This document shows, in pieces, positions 3,368 to 26,266 of a DNA stretch of 26,266 bases (position 1 is the first letter of the stretch; each line of letters opens with the position of its first letter). This DNA comes from Candidatus Phoenicimicrobium oleiphilum (GTDB lineage: Bacteria; Atribacterota; Phoenicimicrobiia; Phoenicimicrobiales; Phoenicimicrobiaceae): NCBI GenBank assembly GCA_039638295.1, contig JBDIWJ010000023.1:1-26266 (forward strand), in the 5' to 3' direction. A model generated the notes under the pieces. It was not told where the DNA came from. It saw only the letters and a program-made list of their open reading frames with translations, and made no database searches. A program made the translations under genes and the position numbers.

Positions 3368-3402
3368 ATGTAAACAAAGGTGCCTGGCACTTTTGTTTAC
3401 AT
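3368..3402. mobile_element. 35-bp RAYT-associated palindrome (arms A/B); supplies the last codon and stop of mrdA
   Basis: ATGTAAACAAAGGTGCC-T-GGCACTTTTGTTTACAT with one arm mismatch; overlaps mrdA at 3397-3402 (ATG TAA on the minus strand). Confidence 0.9.
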
Positions 3403-8261: not shown

Positions 8262-8296
8262 ATGTAAAATTTTGTGCCAGGCATAAAATTTTAATT
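8262..8296. mobile_element. Diverged copy of the 35-bp palindrome
   Basis: ATGTAAAATTTTGTGCC-A-GGCATAAAATTTTAATT; 14-bp stem with one mismatch around the same TGCC-W-GGCA core. Confidence 0.7.
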
Positions 8297-8902: not shown

Positions 8903-8929
8903 ATATTGTTTTTTTAAATAGTATCCCTA

Positions 8930-8968: not shown

Positions 8969-8994
8969 AATAGCAATTTCCCAAAAAGTTCTAT

Positions 8995-9018
8995 GGGCAC
9001 GATGCATCGTGCCCCTAT
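8995..9018 (-). mobile_element. Single REP of the GTAG family (ATAG variant)
   Basis: GGGCACGATGCATCGTGCCC is identical to 5364-5383 and is followed by CTAT. Confidence 0.75.
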
Positions 9019-9112
9019 TTTACTATTTTGTGCATTTTTTAAGTTACAATTAATAAATTAAATAAAAACAGCTATTGAATAAAGAGCGGGGCTGCCTTAA
9101 GCAAGTTTAGAG

Positions 9113-9174
9113 GCAATAAAAAATAACAAATGACATAGAGGTTTCAGAGGAGTTTGTCCCCCTGAGAATCTTGA
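9113..9174 (-). mobile_element. Partial inverted MITE-like copy 3
   Basis: Reverse complement TCAAGATTCTCAGGGGGACAAACTCCTCTGAAACCTCTATGTC aligns with 8089-8131; the second TIR is not seen. Confidence 0.65.
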
Positions 9175-9199
9175 TGTTGCTATATATTCTAATATATTT

Positions 9200-10831: not shown

Positions 10832-10927
10832 ATATCTACCCCTGCTCCCCATCAATGCTCTTATTATTTTATTATATCTTAATTATATTTTTATTACCAT
10901 CAATCTTTAATATTAGGATTTTTCTTT

Positions 10928-11908
10928 TCATCTCTTCTTAAACCAATCAACTGTCTTTTTCAATCCTTCAGATAAAACGACCTCTGGTTGCCATCCCCAA
11001 ATCTGCTTAATTAATTGACAGTCCAGAATATTCTTTCTTAAATCCCCAGGGCGGGGAGGTCCGTAATTTGCTTGATGAGGAAATTTTATAATCTCTTTTA
11101 AAAGATGAAAAAGTTCATTTACTGAAGTGCCTATTCCCGTCCCTAAATTAAAAACATTATTTTCCAACTCAATTTCTTTTGCACTTTTTGTTTTTTGGAT
11201 TGTTTTATACAATTTTAACATATTTTTAACCGCGAGTAAATTAGCCTGAGCTACATCTCCCACATAAACATAATCTCTGATATATTCTCCATCACCATTT
11301 ATGGTAGGAATCTCCCCTTTTAACATCTTCTCAATAAATATGGCTATAACCCCTGCTTCCCCATAAGGATCCTGCCGAGGTCCATATACATTTCCATATC
11401 TCAAAGATATATAATTAAGATTATAATTTTTCTGATAAAAATTAAGATAATATTCAATTGTCACTTTGCTAATTCCGTAAGGAGACAATGGTTGGAAGGG
11501 ATAAGTTTCACTTACTGGTAAATACTCTGGTTCTCCATAAATAGTCCCTCCACTGGAGGCGAAAACTATTCCTTTTGTTTGATAATTTACACAACATTGT
11601 AATAAATTTAAGGAACCCAGGATATTAGTCCGAGCATCAAACAAGGGATCTCTTACCGACAAAGAAACACTTATTTGTGCTGCTTGATGGCTAACATAAT
11701 CAGGCCTTTCCCGGTGAAAAACTTCCCTCAATTTTTCTTCATCAGTAATACTCAATTTATAAAACTGGGTCTGTTTATTTATATTTTCTTCTCGCCCTGA
11801 AGATAGGTCATCAACTACCACTACTTTAAAATTATTTTTGATAAGCAAATCCACAATATGAGAACCAATAAATCCCGCTCCCCCAGTAACTAATACAGTC
11901 ATTTTCAT
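10928..11908 (-). CDS. NAD-dependent epimerase/dehydratase (UDP-glucose 4-epimerase-like)
   Basis: TGGAGFIG, YxxxK (YGISK), RYGNVYGPRQ, RDYVYV; GGAGG RBS. Confidence 0.88.
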   Translation of the reverse strand: MKMTVLVTGGAGFIGSHIVDLLIKNNFKVVVVDDLSSGREENINKQTQFYKLSITDEEKLREVFHRERPDYVSHQAAQISVSLSVRDPLFDARTNILGSLNLLQCCVNYQTKGIVFASSGGTIYGEPEYLPVSETYPFQPLSPYGISKVTIEYYLNFYQKNYNLNYISLRYGNVYGPRQDPYGEAGVIAIFIEKMLKGEIPTINGDGEYIRDYVYVGDVAQANLLAVKNMLKLYKTIQKTKSAKEIELENNVFNLGTGIGTSVNELFHLLKEIIKFPHQANYGPPRPGDLRKNILDCQLIKQIWGWQPEVVLSEGLKKTVDWFKKR

Positions 11909-11922
11909 ACATTTTCCTCCCT

Positions 11923-11957
11923 ATGTAAACAAAGGTGCCAGGCACCTTTGTTTACAT
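11923..11957. mobile_element. 35-bp RAYT-associated palindrome (perfect, arms A/A)
   Basis: ATGTAAACAAAGGTGCC-A-GGCACCTTTGTTTACAT; 6 nt from the wecA stop and 2 nt from the RBS of the next gene. Confidence 0.92.
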
Positions 11958-11963
11958 TTTTTA

Positions 11964-12887
11964 CTAAAGAGCTAGAATAAGAGCAATTATGCTGCAGAGG
12001 GCAGTTACTCCCCATAGAATTAAAACAACATTCTTATGAGATATCCCGCGACTCAAAAGACGATGATGGAGATGTTTTTTATCAGCCTGAAAAATAGGTT
12101 GATGACTTCTATATCGCCTGTATATAGCAAATAAAGTATCAAAAATAGGTAAAGCTAAAACAATTAAAGGAATGAAAACAAAAAATGCATTTTCACTTTT
12201 TAAAACCCATAAGGCTCCAAGGGAAGCTAATATAAAACCGGAAAAAGTACTTCCCGAATCACCTAAAAATATCTTTGCTGGATAAAAATTAAATCTTAAA
12301 AAAGCTAACATACTTCCCGCCAGGGCAATAGATATAAGATTTAAAGTTTCGAAATTTTGCTTTAACCCTAAAACAAAAAAAGTGATTAAAGTGATAATTG
12401 AAACTCCACAAGCCAGTCCATCTAAACCATCTATTAGATTAATAGAATTAGTAACTCCCACTATCCATAAGATTAAGATAGGATAAAGAAGATAGCCTAA
12501 TAAATCAAAGCTTTTTAACTGGTTATTTATAAAGATATTTATTAAATCAATATTGGAGATAATCACCATCAATGCCGGTACCATTTGAATAATGAATTTA
12601 TGTTTAGGTGAGAGATCGACAATATCATCTACTATCCCTAATAGTAAAATAATTACCCCCGCAGCTAATAAAATTTTAATCTGCCCTTCTATCTGTACAA
12701 TAAACAGCAAACTTAGTAAAAATCCAAAAAAAATAATTACTCCCCCTAAATTAGGAATAGCTGCCTCGTGTATTTTACGGTGATTAGGCAAATCTACCAT
12801 ATTCTGTTTTTTCCCTACTTGAGCTAAATAAGGGGTTAAGATATAGGAAACCGCAAAGGCAATAACACCTACTTCTATGTATTTCAA
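11964..12887 (-). CDS. wecA: Undecaprenyl-phosphate GlcNAc-1-phosphate transferase (WecA/TagO; MraY-like family)
   Basis: RKIH..PNLGG, GIVDD, NLIDGLDGL, IFLGDSG and HLHHRL motifs; TTG start with an AGGAG RBS. Confidence 0.87.
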   Translation of the reverse strand: MKYIEVGVIAFAVSYILTPYLAQVGKKQNMVDLPNHRKIHEAAIPNLGGVIIFFGFLLSLLFIVQIEGQIKILLAAGVIILLLGIVDDIVDLSPKHKFIIQMVPALMVIISNIDLINIFINNQLKSFDLLGYLLYPILILWIVGVTNSINLIDGLDGLACGVSIITLITFFVLGLKQNFETLNLISIALAGSMLAFLRFNFYPAKIFLGDSGSTFSGFILASLGALWVLKSENAFFVFIPLIVLALPIFDTLFAIYRRYRSHQPIFQADKKHLHHRLLSRGISHKNVVLILWGVTALCSIIALILAL

Positions 12888-12987
12888 AAAACAATCTCCT
12901 ATCTTTTCTTAGTAGTTAAGGTAAACTAAAATTTTGTGTTGTGACTGGATTGGTATAAAATGTTATCCTACCTTATCTTATCTTATC

Positions 12988-14106
12988 TTATCTTAATCGA
13001 GCTAATTCTTTCTTTAAATTTTCAATACAAGCTACCGGGGAAGGGTCAACCTGATTTAATACAGCTAAATAATAACTTACCAGGTCACCCAAATAGATCA
13101 GGGAAAACATGCGGGCTAACTTCCCCTTACCACTCGAGTGGCAAATTATAAATTCTGCAACTTTATTTCCAATAATCTTTTGAGTAATTTCGCGTCTCTG
13201 ATTTATCCGCAATGACCCTTCTTTGTCTTCCAGATAAATAATTTTAACCAGTCGATTTATATTGTTTTCGATTTCATAACCAACTATTTCATTGTGATTT
13301 AATTCAGAAAATATATTCCAAAAACAGGGCCATTTACTATTTTCATTTATTTGAGTCTTCCATCGCATAGCAACTGCTTCAAGTAATCCCTCAGAACCAT
13401 AGACCAATGGAAGATTCTGGTATAATTTCAGGGCTATCTTTTTAGCTAAATTATTCTTAAGTGGAGACTCACTACTATATGCCCTGCAAAGTCCCTGTAA
13501 AATATCAAAAGCTTCCTCAATCTCCTGGTTTCTCTCTTTTATAAGACCCATCCTCTCTAAAACCTTTAACATCGGAAAGAACAAATAAGGGATGGCAGCT
13601 CGAGGTTGAATCCCTGCTGGTACTTTAATAAAAGGAAAAGTCTTTTCTTTAGATAGCTCAGCAAATTTACCTCCCGAAGTTAGGGCGATGACTTTGGCCT
13701 TAGCTTTCAAAGACTTTTTCAAGGCAGAAATAGTCTCTTCGGTATTACCAGAATAACTTACCGCAAAGACTAATGAATTTTCCCCCACAAATTTTGGCAC
13801 ATCATAGCCTCGGATGACTAAGAGGGGTATGGAAAGTTCATCAGCTAAATAATGAGATAACAAATTGCCACCGATAGCTGAACCTCCCATTCCAAGTACG
13901 ACGATATTTTTAAGTCTATCAGGAGAAACAGATAATAAATCAGGAGTAAGGGGAAACTCTTCGCCTAACTGCAAAGAATCTTTCATCTTTTCAGTAAAAT
14001 CTTCTAATAGGCCGATCATATTATCTTGGTCTAATCCGGATAAATCCCCATCTAATATTTTCTCTGCCTGGTTAATATCTATTCTGTTTTCTTTTAGTTC
14101 ATTCAT
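12988..14106 (-). CDS. Bifunctional phosphoglucose/phosphomannose isomerase (SIS family)
   Basis: GMGGSAIGG, SYSGNTEET, QPRAA, RWKTQINENSK, ELNHNE. Start placed at ATG 14106; the ORF is open to GTG 14118. Confidence 0.88.
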   Translation of the reverse strand: MNELKENRIDINQAEKILDGDLSGLDQDNMIGLLEDFTEKMKDSLQLGEEFPLTPDLLSVSPDRLKNIVVLGMGGSAIGGNLLSHYLADELSIPLLVIRGYDVPKFVGENSLVFAVSYSGNTEETISALKKSLKAKAKVIALTSGGKFAELSKEKTFPFIKVPAGIQPRAAIPYLFFPMLKVLERMGLIKERNQEIEEAFDILQGLCRAYSSESPLKNNLAKKIALKLYQNLPLVYGSEGLLEAVAMRWKTQINENSKWPCFWNIFSELNHNEIVGYEIENNINRLVKIIYLEDKEGSLRINQRREITQKIIGNKVAEFIICHSSGKGKLARMFSLIYLGDLVSYYLAVLNQVDPSPVACIENLKKELARLR

Positions 14107-14147
14107 AATCCCTTCCACCCCTTTTTAAATCTATTTTTACATTCTAT

Positions 14148-14176
14148 AACATACCACACAACTATTTTTCAAGCAA
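14148..14176 (-). promoter_or_regulatory. Putative sigma70 promoter for the PGI/PMI-wecA cluster
   Basis: Minus strand TTGCTT-17 nt-TATGTT with an extended TG. Confidence 0.35.
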
Positions 14177-14184
14177 GTATACAA

Positions 14185-14219
14185 ATGTAAACAAAGGTGC
14201 CTGGCACTTTTGTTTACAT
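14185..14219. mobile_element. 35-bp RAYT-associated palindrome (arms A/B)
   Basis: Identical to 3368-3402; 4 nt from the lipoprotein stop codon. Confidence 0.92.
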
Positions 14220-14223
14220 TACA

Positions 14224-16047
14224 TTAGGGTGCTGTAGACAACCAAGGGTCAAAATCAATGTCCCCATCTGACTGACTCCAATAAGCCCAATCTCCCGAAC
14301 TTGAATTGTTGCCTGGATATTTTGGTCCCGCAGCATCTCCCCACCAGTTATTCTCTGCTTTTATAGTATGAGGAGCTTCATTACTAACACCATGAATACT
14401 ATTCCCGGTAATACTATTCTCTCCTACACTTCCTCTCTCTCCTCCCCCTAAATCCGGGTTTACTAAAGCACCCCAGGTTGAATTATAATCAATTAATACT
14501 CCATAACTATTATTACTAATAGTATTATAAGAAATAATTGGTGTAGCACTCTCCCGACAATAGATACCAGTATTTGAATTATTACAAATATCATTGTTAT
14601 TAATCTCTGGTGAAGAATCGCCCCAGGTTCTTATTCCATATTGATTGGAAAGAATAGAATTATTTCTAATTATTCCTGAACCGCCCCTACCAATATCTAT
14701 TCCGCTATAACCATTATTCTCAATATCATTATCTTCAATTATGGGAACAGAATTGGTATAACTTATTCCATAATCATAGTTATTTCTTACTAAGTTGTTG
14801 TTTATAATTATAAAGGAACATCCATTAAAATATATACCAACATTTGCTTTATTTTCTCCATCAATAGTAAATCCAGATATGGTAACATTATTAGCCTCAA
14901 TAGTGATTAAATTTCCAATTATACCCCCACCCATGATAAATGCATTGTCTCGACCCGCACCCCAAAGATTAATCTCTTTATTTATCACTAATTGCTCATT
15001 ATAAGTTCCTGCACTGACTATAACTGATTTTCCAGAATTAACTGCTTCTATCCCCTCCCTGATAGTATTAAAGGGGTTAATCTTAGTACCATCTTCAACT
15101 CCGCTTGTATTTCCAGCATCTACATACACATTTAAATCATATTCAATTTCTGCAATTAAGGGAACGCTTTCATTTCCAACAAAATCACAAGAAGTAATGG
15201 ATATAGTATTAACACCTTCTGAAAGATTATATGAATAGGACCACTCAGTAGAAGAATTAAGAGGAATCACTTCTGTGCCATTAATCCAAAGAGAAGAATC
15301 TGCTTCTTTGGTACCTGAGAGAATCTGGGGAGATATATTGGTCGGGGTAATTACCTCATTTAATGTAGGTTTCTTGGGAGGAGTTATATCTTTTACAGTT
15401 ATTTTCCATTGAAAACTATCTGTAAATTCTCCATCACTTACTAAAACTTTTATTACTTTTGTCCCATATTCTCCATACTCAGAAGAATATTTCCAGATAC
15501 TCTGTGCGCTATTTTCATTTGTTGAAGAACTGGAAACAAGTTTTCCTTCTAAAAACCATTGAAATCCAAGAGCTGTGTTTATGTCAACATCATAAGCTTG
15601 AATTTCGAATTTGATTGAATCTCCTTCATTAATCTCAATGTTGAGATTACTCGGAAGATAAGAAATGATTTGAGGAGGGTCATTGATATTAATGACTTCG
15701 ATTTTAAAACTCTGCTGGATGTTATGTTTGCCATCAGTAATTTCTATAATCACTTGATGCACTCCTATCTGATTATTGTTCGGTATCCAGGTTACTAAAC
15801 CATTTTCACTATCAATGCCCATTCCTTCTGGATTGAGAGCTAAAAAATAGGTAAGTCTATCTCCCTCCGGATCTTTTGCCTCAATCTGATATGAATAAAG
15901 ATGATTTTCTTTGACAGTACTAATAGGGTCAGAAATTATAACCGGTGCCTGGTTTAAAAACGGAATAATTTTTTCTAAATTTAAGCAACCCCCAATCGAT
16001 AATGCTATAACAATTAATCCAATTAACAATACAAAAAACTTTTTCAC
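14224..16047 (-). CDS. Predicted lipoprotein with Ig/cadherin-like domains and a right-handed beta-helix
   Basis: MKK plus hydrophobic stretch and lipobox-like IGG-C; NQAPVIIS/DPEGD/NDPPQI Ig-like repeats; NPFNTIREGI and GTYNE followed by IxNNxI beta-helix repeats; NNWWG tail; GTG start. Confidence 0.75.
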   Translation of the reverse strand: MKKFFVLLIGLIVIALSIGGCLNLEKIIPFLNQAPVIISDPISTVKENHLYSYQIEAKDPEGDRLTYFLALNPEGMGIDSENGLVTWIPNNNQIGVHQVIIEITDGKHNIQQSFKIEVININDPPQIISYLPSNLNIEINEGDSIKFEIQAYDVDINTALGFQWFLEGKLVSSSSTNENSAQSIWKYSSEYGEYGTKVIKVLVSDGEFTDSFQWKITVKDITPPKKPTLNEVITPTNISPQILSGTKEADSSLWINGTEVIPLNSSTEWSYSYNLSEGVNTISITSCDFVGNESVPLIAEIEYDLNVYVDAGNTSGVEDGTKINPFNTIREGIEAVNSGKSVIVSAGTYNEQLVINKEINLWGAGRDNAFIMGGGIIGNLITIEANNVTISGFTIDGENKANVGIYFNGCSFIIINNNLVRNNYDYGISYTNSVPIIEDNDIENNGYSGIDIGRGGSGIIRNNSILSNQYGIRTWGDSSPEINNNDICNNSNTGIYCRESATPIISYNTISNNSYGVLIDYNSTWGALVNPDLGGGERGSVGENSITGNSIHGVSNEAPHTIKAENNWWGDAAGPKYPGNNSSSGDWAYWSQSDGDIDFDPWLSTAP

Positions 16048-16152
16048 CTTTTAATACATCCCTTTTTCTAAATATATCTAATTTATTTTGATATTTTTTC
16101 TTTTAATTCTTTAAGTTCTTCAAGGAATTAAGTATTTTATATTCTTATTTGA

Positions 16153-16168
16153 TATGATTCGAATCATA
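16153..16168. promoter_or_regulatory. Perfect 16-bp palindrome TATGATTCGAATCATA, candidate operator
   Basis: Lies between a minus-strand TATAAT (16189-16194) and the lipoprotein start. Confidence 0.35.
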
Positions 16169-16280
16169 AAAAGTTGTAACACTATCTTATTATAAAGCAC
16201 CCACCTCATCTTTCTTTTTTTCTTTTACTTATACATTTATTTTTTCATTAATTTACTTATTTCTGTTCCAAGATATTTTT

Positions 16281-17411
16281 CTAATCTACCTTCCAAAAGA
16301 TTCTTTTCGCATTATCATGATAAATCATTCTTAAAGTAACATCATCAAGATTAAGGCCTTTGTATACTGTTTCTGGATCAATATTTTCTCGAGCTTTTTT
16401 ACTCATCATCTTATAAATTGAATCTGGCAAAGTAAATTCTTCTTTTTCTAACATATCAAAATAACTTAATACTATTTCATCAATATAACTCCTACTTTTA
16501 GCCCGATATGAGGTAATAACTATATCTGTCCCAAAGAGAATTCGATCCTTATATTTTCTCATAAATTTTTTAAATGCTTCAGCATTCTGGGAAATTCTTT
16601 TAAATCCTGCTACTTGAAAATCAGGATGACCAAAACTTATATCTGTATAGAGATTAGGATAAGAATCAAGAAGTCTACTCAATCGAAAAAGATTGCTTGA
16701 GGTCAAGATAAAATGGGGGGCAATAATCGTCAAATTTGGAAAATTCTGTAAAATATTTTCAAATTGTGGGAGAAAACGTCCACTGTTTACATGATAAAGG
16801 ATAGGTATCCCTCTTTCTTCACAATAACTATATACCTCCATCATTCCAGGATCATCCAAGGGGAGCCTAAAAAAATTATCGTAAAAAAAACCGTGTCCAT
16901 TATAAAGTTTCAAACCCTTGGCACCATCAACAATAAACTTCTTTAACTTCTCCAGTTTATTTTCATCGAGAGGGTTGATAGTGCATAAAGCAATAAACTT
17001 ATCTGGATATTGCTTACTTATATTTATGATCTCTTCATTATTTTTATCATATTCAGTAAATCCATATTTAGGATTTAGATAAAAAGTATACTTAGAAGTC
17101 CCCAGTATAATCAATTTTTCTATCTGGCAATCTTCCATCACCTTAAGGAGGATTGGTAAATTACGAGAGGATTGAACATGTTCGTGGGCATTTATAATTT
17201 TAAAATTCGCCCTTCTTTCTGTGAGGGCTGGATTAATTTCAGCAATTAGAGATGAAGGCTGGTTATCTATCCATAAAGGTAGATAACCTATTTGCCTGAA
17301 ATACCATAAAAACATCGTTACCAACAATATAATTATTATGACATAAAACCATAAATCGCTTTTTTTCCCTCTTCTTGCTATTTCTTTTGTACTGGCTTTT
17401 TTTTGGACCAT
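16281..17411 (-). CDS. Membrane-anchored amidohydrolase family protein (Amidohydro_2-like)
   Basis: N-terminal TM helix; HxH (NAHEH), GLKLY, ILYH, APHF and LFGTD metal-site motifs. Confidence 0.8.
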   Translation of the reverse strand: MVQKKASTKEIARRGKKSDLWFYVIIIILLVTMFLWYFRQIGYLPLWIDNQPSSLIAEINPALTERRANFKIINAHEHVQSSRNLPILLKVMEDCQIEKLIILGTSKYTFYLNPKYGFTEYDKNNEEIINISKQYPDKFIALCTINPLDENKLEKLKKFIVDGAKGLKLYNGHGFFYDNFFRLPLDDPGMMEVYSYCEERGIPILYHVNSGRFLPQFENILQNFPNLTIIAPHFILTSSNLFRLSRLLDSYPNLYTDISFGHPDFQVAGFKRISQNAEAFKKFMRKYKDRILFGTDIVITSYRAKSRSYIDEIVLSYFDMLEKEEFTLPDSIYKMMSKKARENIDPETVYKGLNLDDVTLRMIYHDNAKRIFWKVD

Positions 17412-17449
17412 TCCCTCTAACTTGCCCCTTGAATTAATAACTAAAATAA

Positions 17450-17478
17450 ATTATACCTTACTTTCCTCCAAACTCCAA
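17450..17478 (-). promoter_or_regulatory. Putative sigma70 promoter of the amidohydrolase gene
   Basis: Minus strand TTGGAG-17 nt-TATAAT. Confidence 0.45.
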
Positions 17479-17493
17479 AAAATTTTTATCAAT

Positions 17494-17549
17494 AAATGTA
17501 AACAAAGGTGCCAGGCACCTTTGTTTACATTTGTGACAAATTTGGTGCT
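17494..17549. mobile_element. Perfect palindrome (17496-17530) plus a lone D-like arm (17533-17549) upstream of the RAYT
   Basis: AAATGTAAACAAAGGTGCCAGGCACCTTTGTTTACATTT followed by GTGACAAATTTGGTGCT. Confidence 0.9.
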
Positions 17550-17568
17550 GTGATCTCCTATAAAAATC

Positions 17569-17597
17569 TTGAATTATTATAAATAAAATAGTATACT
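17569..17597 (+). promoter_or_regulatory. Putative sigma70 promoter of the RAYT gene (near-leaderless)
   Basis: TTGAAT-17 nt-TATACT, ending 9 nt before ATG 17607; no Shine-Dalgarno sequence. Confidence 0.55.
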
Positions 17598-17606
17598 TTA
17601 TTCATT

Positions 17607-18491
17607 ATGGTGCGAATAAACAGAAAAGAAATTGAATATAAAAATGCTTTCTACCATATAATAGCAAAAGGGGTCGAAGGGATAAACATTTTTATTGACG
17701 ATATAGATAAAAATAAATTTTTACAACTTCTACAAAAAATGGTTAACTCTTACCATATTCATCTCTTCTTTTATGTGCTAATGGATACTCATTTTCACCT
17801 CCTGCTTAAAACAGAAGAAACAAATCTTTCTGAAGCGATGCAGTTTTTAAATTCTTCTTATGCCCACTGGTTTAATTTAAGACATATTAGAAAAGGTCAT
17901 TTATTCCAAGACCGTTATAAAAGCTATCTTATCCTAAATCCTCTTTACATGTATAGTGTGGCTTCTTATATTAGCCTAAATCCTGTAGAGGCTGGATTGG
18001 TAGATTCTCCTGAAAATTACCCCTGGTGCAGTTTTCAATACTTCATCTCAGCTTCAGGCAAAACTGCTCCCCCCTGGCTAAAGGTTAAAGAATTCTTAAA
18101 ACTTTGCCAAACTAACGCAGATAATTTTGTTAATTTTGTAAAGGATAATAATCCTAAAAATCATACAGAAAAAGTCCTCCAAAATTTTAATAAGACAACC
18201 TCAAATTATAGATTGAATACTAACACCCAAGCTTATCTTCCTAAAAATATAGAAAATATATTGGTTAAAGTTAAAGAGCGAGTTGGGGATATAGACACTA
18301 ATAAACGTTTAAAACATTTACTTGTTTACCTATTAATAAAAGAGGGTTATAGAATAAACGATATAGCAACTTCTTTGAACCTTACCCGACAGAGTATTTT
18401 GGGAATAAATAGAAAAATCCAAAAAAATTTAATAAATGACCACTTTTGTCAGCTTTTACTAAATCGAATCAAGATGAGCCTATTTACATAA
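17607..18491 (+). CDS. REP-associated tyrosine transposase (RAYT-like HUH/Y1 nuclease) with a probable C-terminal HTH
   Basis: FYHII, HUH motif LMDTHFHLL, GHLFQDRYKS, candidate catalytic Tyr in YISLNPVEAGLV, YPWCSF; C-terminal YRINDIATSLNLTRQSI HTH-like segment; palindromes on both sides. Confidence 0.88.
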   Translation: MVRINRKEIEYKNAFYHIIAKGVEGINIFIDDIDKNKFLQLLQKMVNSYHIHLFFYVLMDTHFHLLLKTEETNLSEAMQFLNSSYAHWFNLRHIRKGHLFQDRYKSYLILNPLYMYSVASYISLNPVEAGLVDSPENYPWCSFQYFISASGKTAPPWLKVKEFLKLCQTNADNFVNFVKDNNPKNHTEKVLQNFNKTTSNYRLNTNTQAYLPKNIENILVKVKERVGDIDTNKRLKHLLVYLLIKEGYRINDIATSLNLTRQSILGINRKIQKNLINDHFCQLLLNRIKMSLFT

Positions 18492-18499
18492 AAAAGAAA

Positions 18500-18572
18500 A
18501 TGTAAAAAAAGGTGCCAGGCACCTTTTTTTACATTTATGACAAATTTAGTGCCTGGCACCTTTGTTTACATT
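18500..18572. mobile_element. Palindrome doublet (C/C unit 18500-18534 and D/A unit 18537-18571)
   Basis: Read directly; reverse complement of 21781-21853 with 3 differences in 73 bp. Confidence 0.92.
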
Positions 18573-18581
18573 GGAGAAAAG

Positions 18582-21500
18582 ATGAAAAATAAAGTAGTAT
18601 TTTCTTTTTATATTGCTATAATCCTGAGTTTATTAATATGCCTGCCATTAGCTATAAAAGTAGAAGCGGTTCGTTATGACCCCAATTTACAATGGCAGGT
18701 TTTAGAAAGCCCCCATTTCTCAGTTTATTTTTTTACATCACAAGACAATGAAGACTACAAATATCATAACAAACTATTATCTCAGGAAATAGCTGATATT
18801 GCTGAAGAGGTTTACACCCAAATCAATACCCAAATTGGTTTTCCAAAACATCACCATATGCAAAAGATAGCCATAATTATGGAAGATTTTTCTGATTATG
18901 CTCTGGGCTTTGCTTCCTCTTTCCCCCATCGAGTAATTCGCCTTTCCCTAACCGCTCCAACGGCTAAATCCTTTGATATGAAATTTAAAAGCTGGCTCAA
19001 AATGGTAATTGCTCACGAATACACTCACCTAGCTCATTTTGAAATGACTTGTGGTCTTACTACTGCCCTGCGTGCCCTTTTCGGCCAGATAATTACCCCT
19101 AATGGTCTTCAACCAACCTGGTCAATTGAGGGGTTAGCGGTTTATAATGAAACTAAATTTACTACTGAAGGCGGAGGAAGAGGCATAGATCCTCGCTACG
19201 AAATGTATCTTCGTATGGCTGCTTTAGATGACCAATTTAATACTTTAGACCAGATAAATGGTTATTACCTCACTTCCTGGCCCGGGAGCACAGCTCCCTA
19301 TATCTATGGCCAATCTATTATTCACTTTATTGCCCAAAGATACGGAGAAGATAAAGTAATTGCTTTAAGTGAAGTATTTTGCAAATATCCTTATTTAGGT
19401 TTTAACTATGCTTTTAAAAGGACATTGGGTTTGGATCTTGATGAATTGTACCAAAATTGGAAAGAATATTTAAAAGAAAAATATCAAACCCAGGCTCAAA
19501 AAATTAGTTCTCAAAAAAATCTTACTAAATCACAACAATTAACCAATTATCACTATTGGGTCGATTACCCGAGTTGGATCTCTACCTCCACCGACTCTGA
19601 AGATAAAATAGCTATCAGGGTTTCAACACCCCACTCCTACCCTTTTATTCAAATTATTGACCCTTCAGCATCTATGGCTCCTTTAACTTATTCTGCTATT
19701 AAAAACCAATCTTTAGTTAAAAGAACCTATGGTAGGGATTCTTCTTTTAGTATCTCTCCTGATGGTTCTAAAATTATTTATTCCAAATTAACTGATTATA
19801 ATCAATTTTATCAATTTTACGACCTTTATTTATATGATTTAAAAACAGATAAAGAAGTACGCCTTTCTGAAGGGTTACGCGTTCGAGATCCTGACTGGTC
19901 AACTGCTCTTGACTCAAAAAATCCCCAAATTGTAGCAGTAATCAATAATTCCGGAACCAACAATCTAATTCTGATTAATCTACCTTCACCCCTCTCAATT
20001 ATCTCTGTTAAAACTCAATCAACTTACAGCCTAATTACCCAAGAAGATATTATCTACCTCACCAATTTTGATGATGGAACTCAAATATATCAACCCTCCT
20101 GGTCTCCTGGTAGTGATATGATTGCTTTTTCTGCCTGGCGTCAGGGTTATCAGGATATATATATCCTAAATCTTAACTCTACCGACATTGTGAATTCTAC
20201 TCTCCAACCTATCTTTCACGATAAAGCTACCGACTTTAGCCCCTGCTGGTCTTCTGACAGCAAATATCTCTTTTTCTCTTCTGACCGCACCGGCATCTAT
20301 AATATCTTTGCCTTTTCTTTGCTCGATAAAAAACTATACCAAGTGACTAATGTGTTAAGTGGGGCTTTTCAACCCGCCCCTTCTCCTGATGGAAAAAAAT
20401 TAGCTTACATCGAATACCATGCCACAGGATACGAACTACATCTTATGGAATTAGATTCCAATAAGTGGACACAGATAGAATATGTCAAACCCTCCACCAC
20501 CATTGCAGAATTACAATCTTCTCATCAACAGACAGACCAACTAAAAAATCAAAATCTAACCAATACTTCAAAAAGCAACTACCCTATCCATCCCTATTAT
20601 CCCTTTGCCTCCTTTTGGCCACCAACCTACTGGATTCCTGCTGCTCAAATAACTGAAAATGATTTAGGCATTGGTTTTTCGACTGAGCTAGAAGATGTAT
20701 TAGGATTTTATTCTCTACCTATAACGATTACTTACGGAGCATTAAACAATAATCTAAATTACAATTTTGACTATTATAATTACCGCCATTACCCCATCAT
20801 TAATCTTTTTCTACAAGGAAGAACTGATTTAAATTCTTCTGTTTCAACTTCCACTTCCTGGTGGAAAGAAGGAAAAGCCGGTATAAATATCTATTTCCCT
20901 TTTCAGGGGCAAACTACTTCCTCAAGTTCCTTAACAAATTCCCGTTCTTATCGACAAATATTTTCTCTTGGTTATCAATACGAAAGAAAATATTTAACCG
21001 AAGCTGATAATAAAACTTCCTCAGATACTACTACCACTACTAATATCAATACCAATGCCAATACTACCCAAGAAAACATCGCCAGTCTTAGATTGAGTTA
21101 TTCTTATTCTGATACCGAAAAATACGGATTCTCTATCAGCCCCGAACAAGGTCAAGCTTTTTCCCTAAACTACGAGCATGCAGATAAAATCCTTGGCAGC
21201 AGTTATACCTTTGATAAATTCGTCTTTGATGGAAGGAAATTCATCCAACTTCCTTTTCTTCATCAGATCTTATCCCTTCGCCTAATTGCTGGTCATAGTA
21301 GTACAGGTATACCAGATGAGGAAAAATTTAAATTGGGGGGACATTATTCAGCCAACAATCTCGCTAATACAGAAGTTGACATCTTCTCTCTACGTGGATT
21401 CAAATCATCTTTTCTAAAAGGAAACAATCTTCTTTCGACCAGTTTAGAATACCGCTTCCCTATTGCCAACATCGAACATAGTATTAAACTTGGCCCTCTC

Positions 21501-21779
21501 TCCCTCTTTTTAGAAAGACTTTCTGGTGCTCTCTTTATTGACATCGGAAATGCCTGGGAAAGCAGAGAAAATACAAATAAAAATATAAACTCAAATTCTA
21601 ATAATCCTGAGGAAATCATTTCTCCCTGGTATGATTTTAAGACTGGAATTGGAGCAGAATTAAAGGCAGATTTTAATTGGAAATACGAGTCTTCCTTTAC
21701 CTTAAGATTGGGTGCCGCCAAAGCCCTAAACGAACCTAAAGGATATGATATTTACTTTACTTTAGGCACTTCCTTCTAG
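18582..21779 (+). CDS. Omp85-superfamily outer-membrane protein with an N-terminal HExxH peptidase-like domain and a TolB/PD40 beta-propeller
   Basis: Signal peptide after a GGAG RBS (ATG 18582); HEYTH...EGLAVYNE; repeated SPDG/PSWSP/PCWSSD motifs; LRGF, SLEYRFP, FIDIGNAW and terminal Phe of BamA/TamA-type barrels. Confidence 0.8.
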   Translation: MKNKVVFSFYIAIILSLLICLPLAIKVEAVRYDPNLQWQVLESPHFSVYFFTSQDNEDYKYHNKLLSQEIADIAEEVYTQINTQIGFPKHHHMQKIAIIMEDFSDYALGFASSFPHRVIRLSLTAPTAKSFDMKFKSWLKMVIAHEYTHLAHFEMTCGLTTALRALFGQIITPNGLQPTWSIEGLAVYNETKFTTEGGGRGIDPRYEMYLRMAALDDQFNTLDQINGYYLTSWPGSTAPYIYGQSIIHFIAQRYGEDKVIALSEVFCKYPYLGFNYAFKRTLGLDLDELYQNWKEYLKEKYQTQAQKISSQKNLTKSQQLTNYHYWVDYPSWISTSTDSEDKIAIRVSTPHSYPFIQIIDPSASMAPLTYSAIKNQSLVKRTYGRDSSFSISPDGSKIIYSKLTDYNQFYQFYDLYLYDLKTDKEVRLSEGLRVRDPDWSTALDSKNPQIVAVINNSGTNNLILINLPSPLSIISVKTQSTYSLITQEDIIYLTNFDDGTQIYQPSWSPGSDMIAFSAWRQGYQDIYILNLNSTDIVNSTLQPIFHDKATDFSPCWSSDSKYLFFSSDRTGIYNIFAFSLLDKKLYQVTNVLSGAFQPAPSPDGKKLAYIEYHATGYELHLMELDSNKWTQIEYVKPSTTIAELQSSHQQTDQLKNQNLTNTSKSNYPIHPYYPFASFWPPTYWIPAAQITENDLGIGFSTELEDVLGFYSLPITITYGALNNNLNYNFDYYNYRHYPIINLFLQGRTDLNSSVSTSTSWWKEGKAGINIYFPFQGQTTSSSSLTNSRSYRQIFSLGYQYERKYLTEADNKTSSDTTTTTNINTNANTTQENIASLRLSYSYSDTEKYGFSISPEQGQAFSLNYEHADKILGSSYTFDKFVFDGRKFIQLPFLHQILSLRLIAGHSSTGIPDEEKFKLGGHYSANNLANTEVDIFSLRGFKSSFLKGNNLLSTSLEYRFPIANIEHSIKLGPLSLFLERLSGALFIDIGNAWESRENTNKNINSNSNNPEEIISPWYDFKTGIGAELKADFNWKYESSFTLRLGAAKALNEPKGYDIYFTLGTSF

Positions 21780-21780
21780 A

Positions 21781-21853
21781 AATGTAAACAAAGGTGCCAG
21801 GCACTAAATTTGTCATAAATGTAAACAAAGGTGCCAGGCACCTTTGTTTACAT
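21781..21853. mobile_element. Palindrome doublet (A/D unit 21782-21816 and A/A unit 21819-21853) filling the convergent intergenic gap
   Basis: Lies between TAG 21777-21779 (+) and TAG 21854-21856 (-). Confidence 0.92.
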
Positions 21854-22921
21854 CTACATTAAGCCTACTTTACTATGGTCTCCTAAAGTGAATCTGTATA
21901 CTCGAGGTAGGTCTTTAGAATGATAAATGTATACACCTTTACCTATCAGACATCTATGCATTCTCCCTCTTATGTTTTCTAACTTAGTTTCTTCTAATAC
22001 AACACTACATTCAATTTCACTCTTTACTATTTCTACTCTATCGGAAAGAGAACTAAAAGGACCTATATAGGAATCAACTATCCTAGCCCCCTGACCTATT
22101 ATTACTGGACCTAATATCTTAGAATTTATAATTTCTGTCCCTTTTTCTATCCTGACTCTTCCTAAAATCTCTGAAGCTTCATCAACTTTTGCTTCGCTTA
22201 TATCTCGCTCAATATCTTCCAAGACCAAGCGATTGGCCTCTAAAATATCTTCTGGTTTTCCGGTATCTTTCCACCAACCCTTAATTACTTCCGCTCCTAC
22301 CTTATAACCCTTATCAATCATCCATTGAATGGCATCAGTAATCTCTAATTCTCCTCGAGCAGAAGGTTTTATGTTCTCAATGGCTCGATGAATATTTTTA
22401 TCAAAAAAATAGACTCCAATCAAAGCCAAATTACTGGGTGGTTCTTTCGGTTTTTCTACAACCTGTATAACTCTCCCTCTCTCCACTTCAGCAACGCCAA
22501 ACTGCTTCGGATTATCTACTTCAGTAAGCAGAACAAAGGCATTATAATTTCCCTGATTAAATTTATGGGCGTAACTTTCTACCCCATTTTTCAGGAGATT
22601 ATCCCCTAAATACATTAAAAATTCATCTTCTCCCAAAAAATTACGAGCCACCGATACAGCATGAGCCAATCCCAAAGCCTCTTTCTGTTCAATATAAGAA
22701 ATATTTACTCCCCATCTACTACCTTCTCTAATTTCATCCTTTATATCCTCACCGGTCTCCCCGATGATTATACCTATATCTTTTATCCCACAATTCTTAA
22801 TTGCCTCTATTCCATAAAAAAGAACTGGTTTGTTACCAATAGGAATCAAATGTTTAGCACTCGTATGGGTAAGTGGTCTAAGACGAGTCCCTTTCCCTGC
22901 ACATAGAATAATAGATTTCAA
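21854..22921 (-). CDS. rfbA: Glucose-1-phosphate thymidylyltransferase, long form
   Basis: AGKGTRLRPLT, GLAHAV, YLGDN, EKP, SARGELEITDAI, WWKDTG, C-terminal left-handed beta-helix; TTG start with a GGAGG RBS. Confidence 0.87.
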   Translation of the reverse strand: MKSIILCAGKGTRLRPLTHTSAKHLIPIGNKPVLFYGIEAIKNCGIKDIGIIIGETGEDIKDEIREGSRWGVNISYIEQKEALGLAHAVSVARNFLGEDEFLMYLGDNLLKNGVESYAHKFNQGNYNAFVLLTEVDNPKQFGVAEVERGRVIQVVEKPKEPPSNLALIGVYFFDKNIHRAIENIKPSARGELEITDAIQWMIDKGYKVGAEVIKGWWKDTGKPEDILEANRLVLEDIERDISEAKVDEASEILGRVRIEKGTEIINSKILGPVIIGQGARIVDSYIGPFSSLSDRVEIVKSEIECSVVLEETKLENIRGRMHRCLIGKGVYIYHSKDLPRVYRFTLGDHSKVGLM

Positions 22922-23038
22922 TTTTCTACCTCCCTATCTTCCATAATTTTAAACCAAAATTTTAAACCAATCATAAAAACTCAAAACTCACTTTATCCTC
23001 TTATCTTCTTATCTTCTTATCTTCCATTTTTAACCAAA

Positions 23039-24196
23039 TCAACTAATTATCTTCCTTATATTCCTCCCTAAAATTTTAGTGGCCCCTAAAAATATTTTAG
23101 GCCGTTTAAACGCCTTTCTAAACACTACAGAATGGTTTTCAAAGTTTGCTGCCTGCTCAATTAAATCCTCATTCTCTTTAAATAAACTAAATATATTTTT
23201 TGTCTCCTGTTTATTCAATTTTTCATAAACCTTCCGCGCCCACAGCCCGAATCTTATCTCTCTTCCAAATTTTCTCTTCCATCTCCGGTCATACTCTGGT
23301 AAATCATTTTCCTTAATACACTCCACTAAAATCTCTGCAGCCTTTAGACCATAATAAATTCCTCCACCAGTCAAAGGTTTTATATGGCACGCTGCATCTC
23401 CTACTACCGCAATATTTTTATCGCTGGTCTTGGTGATCATCCCCAATGGAATAATTCCCGCTAATTTATCAATAATCTCACCTTTAATCTTTGTTTCTGC
23501 CAAAAAATGATTCAATTTAATTCTGCCATTTTTAGAAATAATTCCTACCCGAATAATCTTCTCACTCTCTGGAATAGTCCAGATAAAAAAGGGTATACCT
23601 TCACTCATACATACCTGAGCAAATTTCTCTGGTACAAAATTTTCTTCCACCCTTATTCTATACTGCCAACCATTATAATATTTTATACCATCTTTAATAC
23701 CGTCTTTTAAGTCATCTTCCTTATTTTCTTTCAACATTCCCAGTTCACTCATCATAAACTTTCTTACTCTGGATTTTGCCCCGTCTGCCCCAATTACTAT
23801 ATCTGCAAAAATATCACCACTACTGGTCTTAAGCCAGTAACCTTTTCCTCTTTTCTCTATCTCTAATAATCTCCTCCCGCACTCTACGTTCAACCCTTTA
23901 CTTAGCTCTTTGTCAAACTTTTCCCGATCAATTACATAAGCTACTCCCTCTCTCTCAATCCGGAAATTATCCTCTTTATAAAAGAAAAAAGCCCCGTTAA
24001 TTTGATTTATAACCGAACTTTTCGAAATCCCAATCAAAGTATCCTCAAAGACCTGTCTGCCTACAATACCAGCACACTTTACTGGCCTACCTACTTCCTT
24101 ATGCTCTTCGATTACTCTGACTTTAATACCATATTTCTTCAACAATTGAGCAGTATAACACCCTATCGGCCCCGCACCCACAATAACTATTTCCAT
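23039..24196 (-). CDS. Geranylgeranyl reductase family FAD-dependent oxidoreductase
   Basis: GAGPIG, PVKCAG, DREKFD, GADG, GDAA..KPLTGGGI. Start at ATG 24196 with an AGGAG RBS; the longer ORF-track start falls inside the repeat. Confidence 0.8.
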   Translation of the reverse strand: MEIVIVGAGPIGCYTAQLLKKYGIKVRVIEEHKEVGRPVKCAGIVGRQVFEDTLIGISKSSVINQINGAFFFYKEDNFRIEREGVAYVIDREKFDKELSKGLNVECGRRLLEIEKRGKGYWLKTSSGDIFADIVIGADGAKSRVRKFMMSELGMLKENKEDDLKDGIKDGIKYYNGWQYRIRVEENFVPEKFAQVCMSEGIPFFIWTIPESEKIIRVGIISKNGRIKLNHFLAETKIKGEIIDKLAGIIPLGMITKTSDKNIAVVGDAACHIKPLTGGGIYYGLKAAEILVECIKENDLPEYDRRWKRKFGREIRFGLWARKVYEKLNKQETKNIFSLFKENEDLIEQAANFENHSVVFRKAFKRPKIFLGATKILGRNIRKIIS

Positions 24197-24216
24197 ATAA
24201 AAAACTCCTATTTCAA

Positions 24217-24251
24217 ATGTAAACAAAAGTGCCTGGCACCTTTTTTTACAT
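24217..24251. mobile_element. 35-bp palindrome (arms B/C); supplies the last codon and stop of psuG
   Basis: ATGTAAACAAAAGTGCC-T-GGCACCTTTTTTTACAT; overlaps psuG at 24246-24251. Confidence 0.88.
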
Positions 24252-25172
24252 TTTTATGGCAGTAGCGATTTTTGCCCCTACTCGAGCATTGTTTTTTACC
24301 AGCTCGATATTGGCTGCCAGGCACTTGCCTTCACTCAATTCATTTATTCTGCTCAGTAAGTATGGGGTAAGTTTTTTACCTTTTATCCCCTTCTTAGCCG
24401 CCTCTAAAATAGTTCTATTTACAATTCTGTTAACATAGGTCCGCGAAAGAGCATATTCTTCCGGTATAGGATTGGCTATTACTATTGCACTTTTTAGACC
24501 CAAATCCCACTTTGTTTTAATTATCCTGGCTGCCTCTATCTCATCCTCTACAGTATAATCTACCTTTAATCCGCTTTCTCTACAATAAAAAGCGGGAAAT
24601 TCATCAGTCCTAAAACCAATTATAGGTACTCCCATCGTTTCCAAATATTCTAAAGTTAAAGACAGATCGAGAATCGACTTTGCCCCAGCACATACCACCA
24701 CAACTGGTGTCCTGGCCAACTCCTGTAAATCAGCTGATACATCAAAGGTTTTCTCTGCCCCTCGATGTGCTCCACCAATACCACCTGTGACAAAAACCTC
24801 TATCCCAGCCAGATGAGCAGCCACCATAGTCGCCGCTACTGTGGTAGCAGCAGTAAGTTTTTTGGCTAAAACTATAGATAAATCACGACGACTCGCCTTT
24901 ATTACCTCCCCAGAAGTAGCCAATAGCTCAAACTCTTCCTCACTCAAACCAATTTTAATCTTCCCTCCCATTACCGCAATTGTTGCTGGTACCACTCCAT
25001 ATCCCCGGATAATATTCTCTACTTCCCGAGCAACCTTTAAATTCTCAGGATAAGGCATACCATGGGCGATAATGGTGGACTCTAACGCCACTACCGGTCT
25101 ATTATTTTCTAAAGCCTCTCTTACATCATCTTTGAAATCGAGAAATCTTCCTGCAGCTCCGCTTCCACACAT
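24246..25172 (-). CDS. psuG: Pseudouridine-5'-phosphate glycosidase
   Basis: PVVALESTIIAHGMPYPEN, KASRRD, ATTVAATM, TGGIGG, DVSADL, GAKSILD, TPYLL. Confidence 0.92.
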   Translation of the reverse strand: MCGSGAAGRFLDFKDDVREALENNRPVVALESTIIAHGMPYPENLKVAREVENIIRGYGVVPATIAVMGGKIKIGLSEEEFELLATSGEVIKASRRDLSIVLAKKLTAATTVAATMVAAHLAGIEVFVTGGIGGAHRGAEKTFDVSADLQELARTPVVVVCAGAKSILDLSLTLEYLETMGVPIIGFRTDEFPAFYCRESGLKVDYTVEDEIEAARIIKTKWDLGLKSAIVIANPIPEEYALSRTYVNRIVNRTILEAAKKGIKGKKLTPYLLSRINELSEGKCLAANIELVKNNARVGAKIATAIKM

Positions 25173-25179
25173 AACTGAT

Positions 25180-26266
25180 TTATACCAACCTTCCTTCTTC
25201 TTCTCCTTCTTCCTCTTCCTCTCCCTCTTTCTCTTCTTCTATCCTGCTTCTTAGCAATCCTTCCCTCAAATCTCTCCTTACCGCCTCTCTGCTTGAAATA
25301 GTGAGTGCTGCTGCCCCCAAGCCAAATTTTGCTGCCATCTCCAGAGGGTATCCTTTATAAATTCCGTAGATTAAACCAGCCACCAGGGCATCTCCTGCCC
25401 CAGTTACATCTACTATCTCACCCCTATAGGGAACCATAAACTTATTCCAATCCTCTTTCCTTCCTTCTCCGTACCCACTACCACCACCACTACCACTAGA
25501 AGAGACATATATTCCTCTTTCTCCCAAAGTAACAATCACATTCTTTACTCCCTTATTTCTTAGCTCTTCTATAGCCTCCAACATATCCTTATCATCATCG
25601 ATTCCTATCCCGGAAATTGATTCCAACTCATCCCTGCTGGGAGTCATATAATCAATATTCCAGCTTCTTCCACTTTTTTCACTTCCACTTTCACTTTCAC
25701 TTCTACTCCCACTCCCGCTTCTACTTCCACTTTCCTCAAATAATATATTTCTTAACTTCTTGACCTTTTCCACCGAAACTGGCTCAATCAAAAGCGGTAC
25801 CTTAACCTTATTGCACAGATCTACCATATATTCAATACTCTCTTCTGGTATATTAGTGTCCATAACCACTATCTTACTCTCTTTAATCAAATAGGCCTTC
25901 GACCTCAGATACTCCACCGTAATCTCCTCCAATATCTGCATATCTGAAACCGCTACTTCCATTTCACCCTTCTCATCCAATATAGCCAGATATATTCCAG
26001 TAGGATATTTTCCCGAGATTATCATCTGATCCATCTTAACCCCAGCCTTCTCGGTCTCCTCCAAAATCCTGATCCCTTCTCCATCATCTCCCACAGCACT
26101 CAACAGGGTAACTGGTACATTAAGTAATGCTAGATTATGGGCGATATTTCTCCCTACTCCTCCTGAGCTAACATTTATCTTCCCGGGATTAGAAGTATAT
26201 CTTTTCAGCTCACCACTCGGCCTACCCCTTAAATCAATATTTGTCCCCCCTATTACCACTACACCA
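25180..26266 (-). CDS. psuK: PfkB-family carbohydrate kinase, probable pseudouridine kinase (likely 5'-truncated by the window edge)
   Basis: GGVGRNIAHNLALL, VTLGERG, DVTGAGD; adjacent to psuG; frame stays open to the window end. Confidence 0.75.
   Translation of the reverse strand, partial: GVVVIGGTNIDLRGRPSGELKRYTSNPGKINVSSGGVGRNIAHNLALLNVPVTLLSAVGDDGEGIRILEETEKAGVKMDQMIISGKYPTGIYLAILDEKGEMEVAVSDMQILEEITVEYLRSKAYLIKESKIVVMDTNIPEESIEYMVDLCNKVKVPLLIEPVSVEKVKKLRNILFEESGSRSGSGSRSESESGSEKSGRSWNIDYMTPSRDELESISGIGIDDDKDMLEAIEELRNKGVKNVIVTLGERGIYVSSSGSGGGSGYGEGRKEDWNKFMVPYRGEIVDVTGAGDALVAGLIYGIYKGYPLEMAAKFGLGAAALTISSREAVRRDLREGLLRSRIEEEKEGEEEEEGEEEGRLV

Follow-up and report, generated by a model that had tools for sequence, protein, structure and literature searches.

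What relation does a single nuclease gene have to the short palindromes that surround it? This question was raised by contig JBDIWJ010000023.1 of Candidatus Phoenicimicrobium oleiphilum (Atribacterota), which was analysed at its full length (26,266 bp, 35% G+C) and is referred to here as the window. The source assembly (GCA_039638295.1; G000 hereafter) comprises 1.65 Mb in 83 contigs and is 91% complete. The window carries a gene for a Y1/HUH nuclease that resembles the tyrosine transposases associated with repetitive extragenic palindromes (REPs), termed RAYTs, together with a 35-base palindrome that is found on both sides of the gene and in other intergenic gaps. What is known of REP/RAYT systems comes from Proteobacteria and from REPs with a GTAG tetranucleotide as their mark, and to our knowledge no DNA partner has been described for the largest RAYT group (Group 1, subclass 2.1). 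Our results suggested that the gene and the palindrome probably form a pair of the REP/RAYT type, in which the Y1 nuclease is predicted to bind the invariant palindrome tip GTGCCWGGCAC and likely copies or overwrites its palindrome family in place. From sequence comparisons, we infer that the palindrome would be the substrate of the RAYT-like protein.

The nuclease and its palindromic units

The full unit, ATGTAAACAAAGGTGCCWGGCACCTTTGTTTACAT, is a perfect 17-1-17 palindrome of 35 bases, and as a single strand it folds at −18.6 kcal/mol (z = −7.9). Its core, GTGCCWGGCAC, occurred exactly nine times in the window (at 3380, 11935, 14197, 17508, 18512, 18549, 21794, 21831 and 24229) and in none of 100 dinucleotide-preserving shuffles of the window. 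A tenth, degenerate copy had the core GTGCCAGGCAT at 8274. The window therefore contained 10 units at eight loci, and every unit position given in the initial annotation proved correct. The genome-wide count was 25 cores in the G000 assembly, nine of which were located on the 26-kb contig with the RAYT-like gene (binomial p of ca. 1e-10). All 25 G000 units were intergenic, mostly between co-directional genes and ca. −10 to +20 nt from the ends of open reading frames (ORFs). In at least six cases, the TAA of the unit itself served as the stop codon, and units were also found within tight operons, such as PBP2–RodA.

The nuclease gene had been described as intact and as bracketed by direct repeats of ca. 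55 bp. Both points were confirmed, as the ORF is complete and the repeats (17494–17548 and 18498–18552) are identical at 51 of 55 positions. The left flank consists of one unit and a truncated second unit, whereas the right flank is a doublet. In this doublet, the arms of the unit at 18500–18534 are A-rich and compensated, and the unit at 18537–18571 is chimeric, with ATGACAAATTTA as the left arm and a right arm of the main type. Each of the two doublets of the window folds into one long hairpin, and between them is a gene for a 1080-aa Omp85/PD40/peptidase protein. The units at 18537 and 21782 both combine one main-type arm with one ATGACAAATTT-type arm, and each pairs with its neighbour as a doublet.

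The 294-aa product of the RAYT-like gene matched Pfam Y1_Tnp at 7e-10 (aa 13–122). The Y1 domain is N-terminal (ca. aa 8–147), with H62-F-H64 as the HUH motif and Y121-ISLNP as the catalytic motif, and the residues H62, H64, Y121 and N125 were invariant in an alignment of 46 homologues. The NCBIfam model NF047646 (‘REP-associated tyrosine transposase’) scored 61.2 bits, below its curated equivalog cut-off of 80. An AlphaFold model of the protein (pLDDT 84) showed an N-terminal alpha/beta domain and a confident helical domain at aa 215–293. The top match of this model among PDB folds was 4er8_A, the E. coli TnpArep protein with a REP hairpin (E 1.7e-7, TM 0.75 by target), followed at ranks 2–26 by Y1 transposases including ISDra2, IS200 and IS608. 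Similarity to 4er8 at the sequence level was marginal, with E values of 0.33 in a single-sequence PDB search and 9.7e-5 with a profile.

The C-terminal helical domain is a predicted helix-turn-helix (HTH) domain on the basis of weak matches, namely to Pfam HTH_7 (E 0.013) and, in profile searches covering aa 207–283, to the LuxR-type regulators VraR/NarL (0.013–0.03) and to DnaA domain IV (0.024 and 0.059). Among 28 near relatives scanned, 11 matched Bac_DnaA_C and five others had HTH or DNA-binding-domain matches, such as HTH_24, HTH_23 and HTH_38. At E ≤ 0.001, an exhaustive HMMER search with the RAYT-like protein returned 28,210 representative clusters. The orthologous group formed a single 50%-identity cluster, and the next relative was 39% identical. 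In G000 itself, the gene was single-copy, with one tblastn match.

Distribution of the pair and renewal of its stems

Orthologues of the RAYT-like gene (57%–86% identity) were found in 17 of 24 genomes of the same family. A core unit was present on both sides of the gene in 16 of these 17 cases, and in the remaining case the contig stops 17 bp past the gene. The tie between palindrome and RAYT-like gene, proposed initially from one contig, was thus upheld across the family. The 13-mer core GGTGCCWGGCACC occurred in 21 of the 24 family genomes and in none of 16 sister-family genomes, with a reversed-pattern control of 0 throughout; core searches of the sister family were positive in 0 of 16 and 0 of 22 genomes. 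The variant AGTGCCWGGCACT was found in 18 of 29 family genomes and in only one of 56 other genomes of the phylum. Wherever the gene was present, palindromes were also present (18 of 18 genomes including G000, all of them kin). Gene absence usually, but not always, went with core absence. In G002 (98% complete), the amidohydrolase gene adjoins the Omp85 gene without a RAYT gene, and the genome contains no core and one relic with a mutated core; in G013, only fragments of the RAYT gene persist beside a degenerate unit, and there are no cores genome-wide. The expectation that relatives without the gene would also lack the palindrome was therefore borne out in these two genomes and contradicted by a third, G004, which is considered below.

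The cores were also concentrated around the gene in several genomes (9/25 in G000, 9/11 in G001 and 7/22 in G003; p of 1e-8 to 1e-10). In G001 and G003, the clustered cores were on the contig of the gene within ca. 30 kb, and none occurred on the other 44 kb of the G003 contig. Separately, G006 contained two copies of the orthologue (loci L016 and L017 on contigs G006:C9 and G006:C6; 69% and 62% identical to the query) on two contigs that jointly form the syntenic region, each copy having its own flanking stem type. These copies stem either from duplication in tandem or from the binning of two strains into one genome.

To describe the anatomy of the unit, 109 units from 19 genomes, selected by an exact core match, were aligned without gaps. 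The only invariant columns were the 10 fixed core positions, with a variable central W; because the units were picked by the core, this invariance is by construction. The stem outside the core varied between genomes, as in the left arms ATGTAAACAAAG, AGTTAACCAAAG, AGTTTCCCAAAG, AGTGTCCTAAAG, AGGGAAACAAAG and AGGTAAACTTTA. Nevertheless, the two arms were paired in 90.6% of cells, as opposed to 70.2% after shuffling. Double-sided changes numbered 354 versus 131 in shuffles, the observed covariation score was reached by 0 of 500 shuffles, and shifting the partner by 1–3 columns lowered pairing to 38%–53%. The 12-nt arms were perfect in 67 of the 109 units, had one mismatch in 17 and two or three in 12, and were chimeric in 13. 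Arm mismatches comprised 20 G.T and 17 A.C pairs, and the lack of a preference for G.U speaks against selection acting on the RNA.

The foot of the hairpin differed by genome, without a conserved 5′ GT[AG]G tetranucleotide. The description of the unit as symmetric and devoid of a GTAG-type foot, which had been based on the window, was thus valid for the larger set, in which the central base was A in 60 units and T in 49. The ATGTAA ends reported in the same description were restricted to this genus; the other genera carried other outer arms, consisting of an A-run and a T-run.

The palindrome had also been thought to have spread through the window, a view that comparisons of gene order did not support. 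In the contigs of 12 relatives, the order radical-SAM, RodA, PBP2, (ZnuBCA), MreD, WecG, epimerase, GT4, PGI and beta-helix protein was retained, continuing with amidohydrolase, RAYT, Omp85, nucleotidyltransferase, FAD oxidoreductase, IndA and PfkB. The same gaps held palindromes across these contigs, which represent several genera, and the RAYT gene kept its place between the amidohydrolase on one side and Omp85/PD40 on the other. Some gaps were filled in single genomes only, e.g., amidohydrolase/beta-helix in G003, and PGI/GT4 and ZnuB/PBP2 in G006. Since the same gaps are filled in several genera, the positions are old and the sequence within them has been renewed.

Arm identity averaged 0.84 between different gaps of the same genome (156 pairs) and 0.60 between different genomes at the same gap (172 pairs). 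The stem type therefore follows the genome and not the gap, which indicates replacement in place instead of recent spread. For example, the stop codon of the Omp85 gene (TAA or TAG) was abutted by a unit in eight genomes with at least six different stems, so that the copies must have undergone replacement in situ after the genera diverged. At shared gaps, the stem type was ACAAAG in G000 and AAAAAG in its congener G001. In G015, nine units with an intact core shared one stem type, while the unit in the Omp85 gap, with the mutated core GTATCAGGCAC, retained an older type. This core mutant fits a renewal that depends on the core.

The core was not confined to Atribacterota. A scan for AAGGTGCCWGGCACCTT with one genome per species gave at least 128 stretches among the matches listed, many of them contributed by a small number of genomes from other phyla, whose extended arms differed from genome to genome. 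Ten such genomes were searched with the RAYT-like protein. In nine of them, belonging to five other phyla (Iamia, an Acidimicrobiales metagenome-assembled genome (MAG), an Actinomycetes MAG, three Planctomycetota, and members of Acidobacteriota, Elusimicrobia and Hyphomicrobiales), a Y1 gene was located between core units, and the other Y1 paralogues retrieved from these genomes were unflanked. One of the nine had two flanked Y1 genes, each with its own arm variant. The tenth, a Bdellovibrionales genome, yielded no core-flanked Y1 gene. The core counts of the 10 genomes were 203, 174, 115, 134, 82, 329, 88, 7, 48 and 181, and the reversed-pattern control gave 0–8.

All 10 core-flanked Y1 proteins from these genomes matched Y1_Tnp, one of them below the cut-off, whereas HTH matches were obtained for three, and five were ≤ 237 aa in length. 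Because few core-flanked proteins show an HTH, their common denominator is the Y1 domain; the HTH, with which the RAYT-like protein had first been described, does not fill this role. On a more tentative level, the GTGCCWGGCAC hairpins could constitute an undescribed, pan-bacterial class of REPs that is marked at the apex, identical on both strands and present in up to hundreds of copies per genome. Such a class might be served by diverse class-2 Y1 nucleases, including subclass 2.1, with the tip being read, strands exchanged at the tip and resident copies overwritten in place, mostly near the gene.

The organisation of the core differed by genome, with singlets, doublets or arrays. In the Acidimicrobiales MAG (L134 and L222), tandem arrays with a 26-bp period and up to four units were located beside the Y1 gene and elsewhere.

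Explanations of the palindrome and related systems

In the pair proposed here, the full symmetry of the element would let either strand form the hairpin when single-stranded, and the hairpin tip would be read by the Y1 domain and not by the HTH, because the same tip flanks HTH-less Y1 genes in other phyla. The catalytic tyrosine would cleave and rejoin the DNA, so that a new stem variant replaces the resident copies. If the enzyme acted mainly near its own gene, this would account for the local clustering of units as well as for their concerted change. Strand exchange might occur at the core, as hinted by the chimeric units, whose differing arms meet exactly there.

Several observations weigh against this proposal. 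The element lacks the strand asymmetry that is typical of known Y1 transposase substrates, as also seen in the central base (A 60, T 49). G000 has few copies (25), mostly at old positions. The unit upstream of the G015 gene retains the old stem type despite its intact core. The gene is deleted in G004 (97% complete), where two units occupy its place, and 17 cores are still present; similarly, 2–10 GGTGCCWGGCACC cores occurred in G010, G011, G017 and G023, in which no orthologue was found and whose assemblies are incomplete or have this region unassembled or fragmentary. A comparison of four G000 regions with G001 provided no clean pair of filled and empty sites. Two of these regions, 4 kb each, were missing from G001, and in a region with two units G001 had a different element of 190–270 bp at both sites, with no readable signature of insertion. 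In addition, ordinary gene conversion combined with self-correction of palindromes at replication could suffice for concerted and compensatory change. Finally, the core-flanked genes did not form one clade in a quick maximum-likelihood tree (IQ-TREE; 54 genes with no rows dropped and ORF starts chosen by a rule that may be off). This tree required 10 changes between the flanked and unflanked states, at least four of them forced by well-supported branches. The flanked genes were scattered among unflanked ones, and the 12 Atribacterota orthologues formed one clade with a support of 100.

The palindromes could instead be host elements, either RNA hairpins with a role in transcript stability or termination, or binding sites of a host protein, homogenised by gene conversion and self-correction, with the gene as a bystander or as a user of landing sites. 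This would agree with the placement of the 25 G000 units, which are all intergenic, near ORF ends and often provide the stop codon, with the filling of the same gaps across genera, with the A-run/T-run outer arms of other genera, which are like those of bidirectional terminators, and with the 17 copies of G004 in the absence of the gene. The units may indeed also act as RNA hairpins, being co-transcribed in operons and abutting stop codons. However, only three palindromes in 8000–26266 passed a terminator scan, one of which (11923) was on the strand opposite to the flanking genes, and units are located inside operons as tight as PBP2–RodA; intrinsic terminators were rejected for these reasons. 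No bias of G.U over A.C was observed (20 versus 17), and genomes with the gene absent or decayed (G002 and G013) had no cores. Nor would independent hairpins be expected to have one 11-base tip in common across six phyla, or to accompany a Y1 gene on both sides in nine of the 10 distant genomes. Considering both sides, we regard this explanation as unlikely.

Conservation of the catalytic residues bears on another explanation, in which the protein is a domesticated regulator whose dimer binds the duplex palindrome via the HTH and controls its own promoter and perhaps those of its neighbours, leaving the nuclease chemistry unused. The HUH and tyrosine residues were invariant in all 46 sequences, most units are at the 3′ ends of genes or in operons and not at promoters, seven of the 10 core-flanked Y1 proteins in other phyla had no HTH match, and the hundreds of copies per genome found there are unlike a regulon. 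These features make a regulator highly improbable, even though the 11-bp core is perfectly palindromic as a duplex and matches a dimer operator in size, one unit is located ca. 40–70 bp upstream of the promoter-like site of the gene, the C-terminal domain is HTH-like, and the gene is single-copy and vertically inherited in the manner of a housekeeping gene.

The units of this genome may, alternatively, be the relics of an old burst, with the conserved gene serving another function. Low copy number, old positions and degenerate copies such as that at 8262 are compatible with such a fossil state, as is the lack of any excision or insertion joint in the assembled contigs of public runs. These public contigs break at the units, with loose ends starting at 17494–17496 and 17532–17534, as repeats would cause. 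A fossil state is nevertheless improbable, given that 67 of the 109 units are perfect, that the difference in arm identity (0.84 within a genome, 0.60 at the same gap between genomes) requires renewal after the genera split, and that even G000 and its congener differ in stem at shared gaps (ACAAAG versus AAAAAG). The decay of units after gene loss was also considered. Of seven G004 units read, three were near perfect and four were chimeric or degenerate, and the congener G008, which has the gene, was much like G004.

Among known systems, REPtrons (E. coli YafM, PDB 4ER8, and Pseudomonas RAYTs) share several features with the proposed pair of nuclease and palindrome. In both, the Y1/HUH gene is present as one copy, is inherited vertically and has at its flanks a short hairpin repeat, which is also dispersed in intergenic DNA and co-occurs with the gene across relatives, and the units are arranged as singlets or as doublets that fold into one long hairpin; 4er8_A was, moreover, the best fold match. 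In contrast to REPs, the GTGCCWGGCAC unit has no 5′ GT[AG]G foot and is conserved at the tip instead, and its stem is perfect, free of bulges and the same on both strands. The present copy number is also low (25) and concentrated around the gene, and sequence similarity to 4er8 is marginal. The IS200/IS605 elements (IS608 and ISDra2) have the Y1 fold and the recognition of single-strand DNA hairpins in common with this system. They differ in being multi-copy and near-identical, with imperfect subterminal hairpins, a Y...Q motif and asymmetric left and right ends, whereas the RAYT-like gene is single-copy, encodes a Y...NP motif and is accompanied by a symmetric repeat.

According to the accessible text of Quentin 2018 (PMC6006769), subclass 2.1 corresponds to Group 1 of Bertels and has a C-terminal HTH. 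Its motifs in Table 1 of that study are NH[YF]H or NHVH, W[EQ] or FQ, and Y[IV]HLNP or YIELNP, and automatic and manual searches there found no REP-like sequences near subclass-2.1 genes. The RAYT-like protein resembles subclass 2.1/Group 1/TIRYT members in its length and in its putative C-terminal HTH-like domain. It reads FQ and YISLNP at two of the motifs, and differs from subclass 2.1 in its HuH motif, which is T-H-F-H and not N-H-[YF]-H. In the available part of Bertels 2017 (PMC5581495), Group 1 genes have flanking 16-mers, which occur ca. 12 times per replicon, a number that fits the copy number of GTGCCWGGCAC observed here. As far as the accessible text of Di Nocera 2013 (PMC3733652) indicates, TIRYT genes have inverted repeats containing GGGGWSAS at their flanks; some of these terminal inverted repeats (TIRs) are ‘partly or wholly self-complementary’ and occur in a moderate number of copies. 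The TIRs of TIRYTs are not hairpins, unlike the palindromes that flank the RAYT-like gene. No GGGGWSAS was found in 17400–18600, and the four matches elsewhere in the window compare with 3.3 expected. Taken together, the system would seem to behave like a REPtron, and the protein looks like a subclass-2.1 member. The repeat has neither the GTAG foot of REPs nor the TIR feature of TIRYTs.

Of 16 Atribacterota paralogues inspected, at least 10 were classical TIRtrons with GGGGTCAGGTCT... inverted ends, and the palindrome was present in none of the 16. Paralogous HTH-bearing Y1 genes with GGGGTCAGGTCT inverted repeats include L064, L066, L067, L074 and L077. The end motif of these TIRtrons is similar to one half of the core palindrome (GGNGNCAGG, with agreement at 7 of 11 positions), which provides a lead on the relation of the two kinds of repeats.

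The impression of a poorly described system was supported by the literature, as far as it is searchable. GTGCCWGGCAC is absent from the REP table in the accessible part of Quentin 2018 (PMC6006769), and no REP listed in that of Nunvar 2010 (PMC2817692) contains it. It was undescribed in the searchable REP/RAYT literature and its supplements, although Figure 9 of Di Nocera 2013 may show it. A literal search of the literature for the core returned no paper on bacterial repeats, and no follow-up work on TIRYT/TnpAY1 was found.

An 11-base invariant tip with a free stem provides a concrete candidate substrate for subclass-2.1-like enzymes. Natural controls are available in the core mutant that escaped renewal, the gene-deleted genome and the gene-decayed genome, and with counterparts in hundreds of copies in five other phyla the role of the enzyme becomes directly testable in vitro. 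Replacement at fixed gaps together with crowding around the gene would make a clear case of a bacterial repeat family that evolves in concert and with a bias in cis. In addition, a new HUH enzyme with sequence specificity would be useful for covalent protein–DNA tagging.

Features of the window and further observations

The coordinates of the gene, the units and the promoter-like site are listed in Table 1.

Table 1. Positions of the RAYT-like gene and associated features in the window
Feature	Position	Strand	Basis or remark
RAYT-like Y1/HUH nuclease gene	17607..18491	+	ORF, 294 aa, intact
Promoter-like site, TTGAAT-17-TATACT	17569..17597	+	Between upstream unit and start codon; consensus match only
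Upstream flanking unit, perfect 17-1-17 palindrome	17496..17530	.	Sequence, fold
Remnant of second unit (TTGTGACAAATTTGGTGC), cut off within core	17531..17548	.	Matches 18535-18552
Downstream doublet	18500..18571	.	Folds as single long hairpin
Doublet, inverted order of 18500-18571	21782..21853	.	Directly after stop codon of 1080-aa Omp85/PD40 gene
Unit, PBP2/RodA gap	3368..3402	.	PBP2 stop codon inside unit
Degenerate unit (core GTGCCAGGCAT, weak fold), ZnuA/MreD gap	8262..8296	.	Sequence, fold
Unit, epimerase/GT4 gap	11923..11957	.	Sequence
Unit, PGI/beta-helix gap	14185..14219	.	Sequence
Unit, FAD-oxidoreductase/IndA gap	24217..24251	.	Sequence

Two further candidate identities for the units were rejected. 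The window had no Rfam match to a known RNA family, and a link to CCWGG restriction or Dcm was discarded, as CCWGG was not depleted in the data (2815 sites versus 848 expected from base composition).

In a crude-oil metatranscriptome library, contigs covered the RAYT gene and its neighbours (16500–22500) with 99% of sampled words. DNA carry-over is possible in this library, and the contig over the RAYT gene is no proof of transcription. The listed start of the 1080-aa ORF is inside the palindrome doublet (window 18537–18582), which would be translated as ..LVPGTF...; the ATG at 18583 (MKNKVV...) is more likely to be the true start. In other genomes, ORFs likewise enter a unit and end in KVPGTF.

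The inserts of G001 at L254 (G001:C24, ca. 12043–12229) and L255 (G001:C29, ca. 7348–7617) are in opposite orientations and share an end like GGATTGTCAGG.GAGTAAACTC..AAACCCCTCTATA. They could be small mobile elements of a second kind that occupy the same gaps. Paralogous Y1 genes of relatives (e.g., G020:C12, G017:C339, G024:C108 and G016:C142) were each full-length apart from one in-frame TGA. This feature recurred across genomes and may reflect either pseudogenes or recoding.

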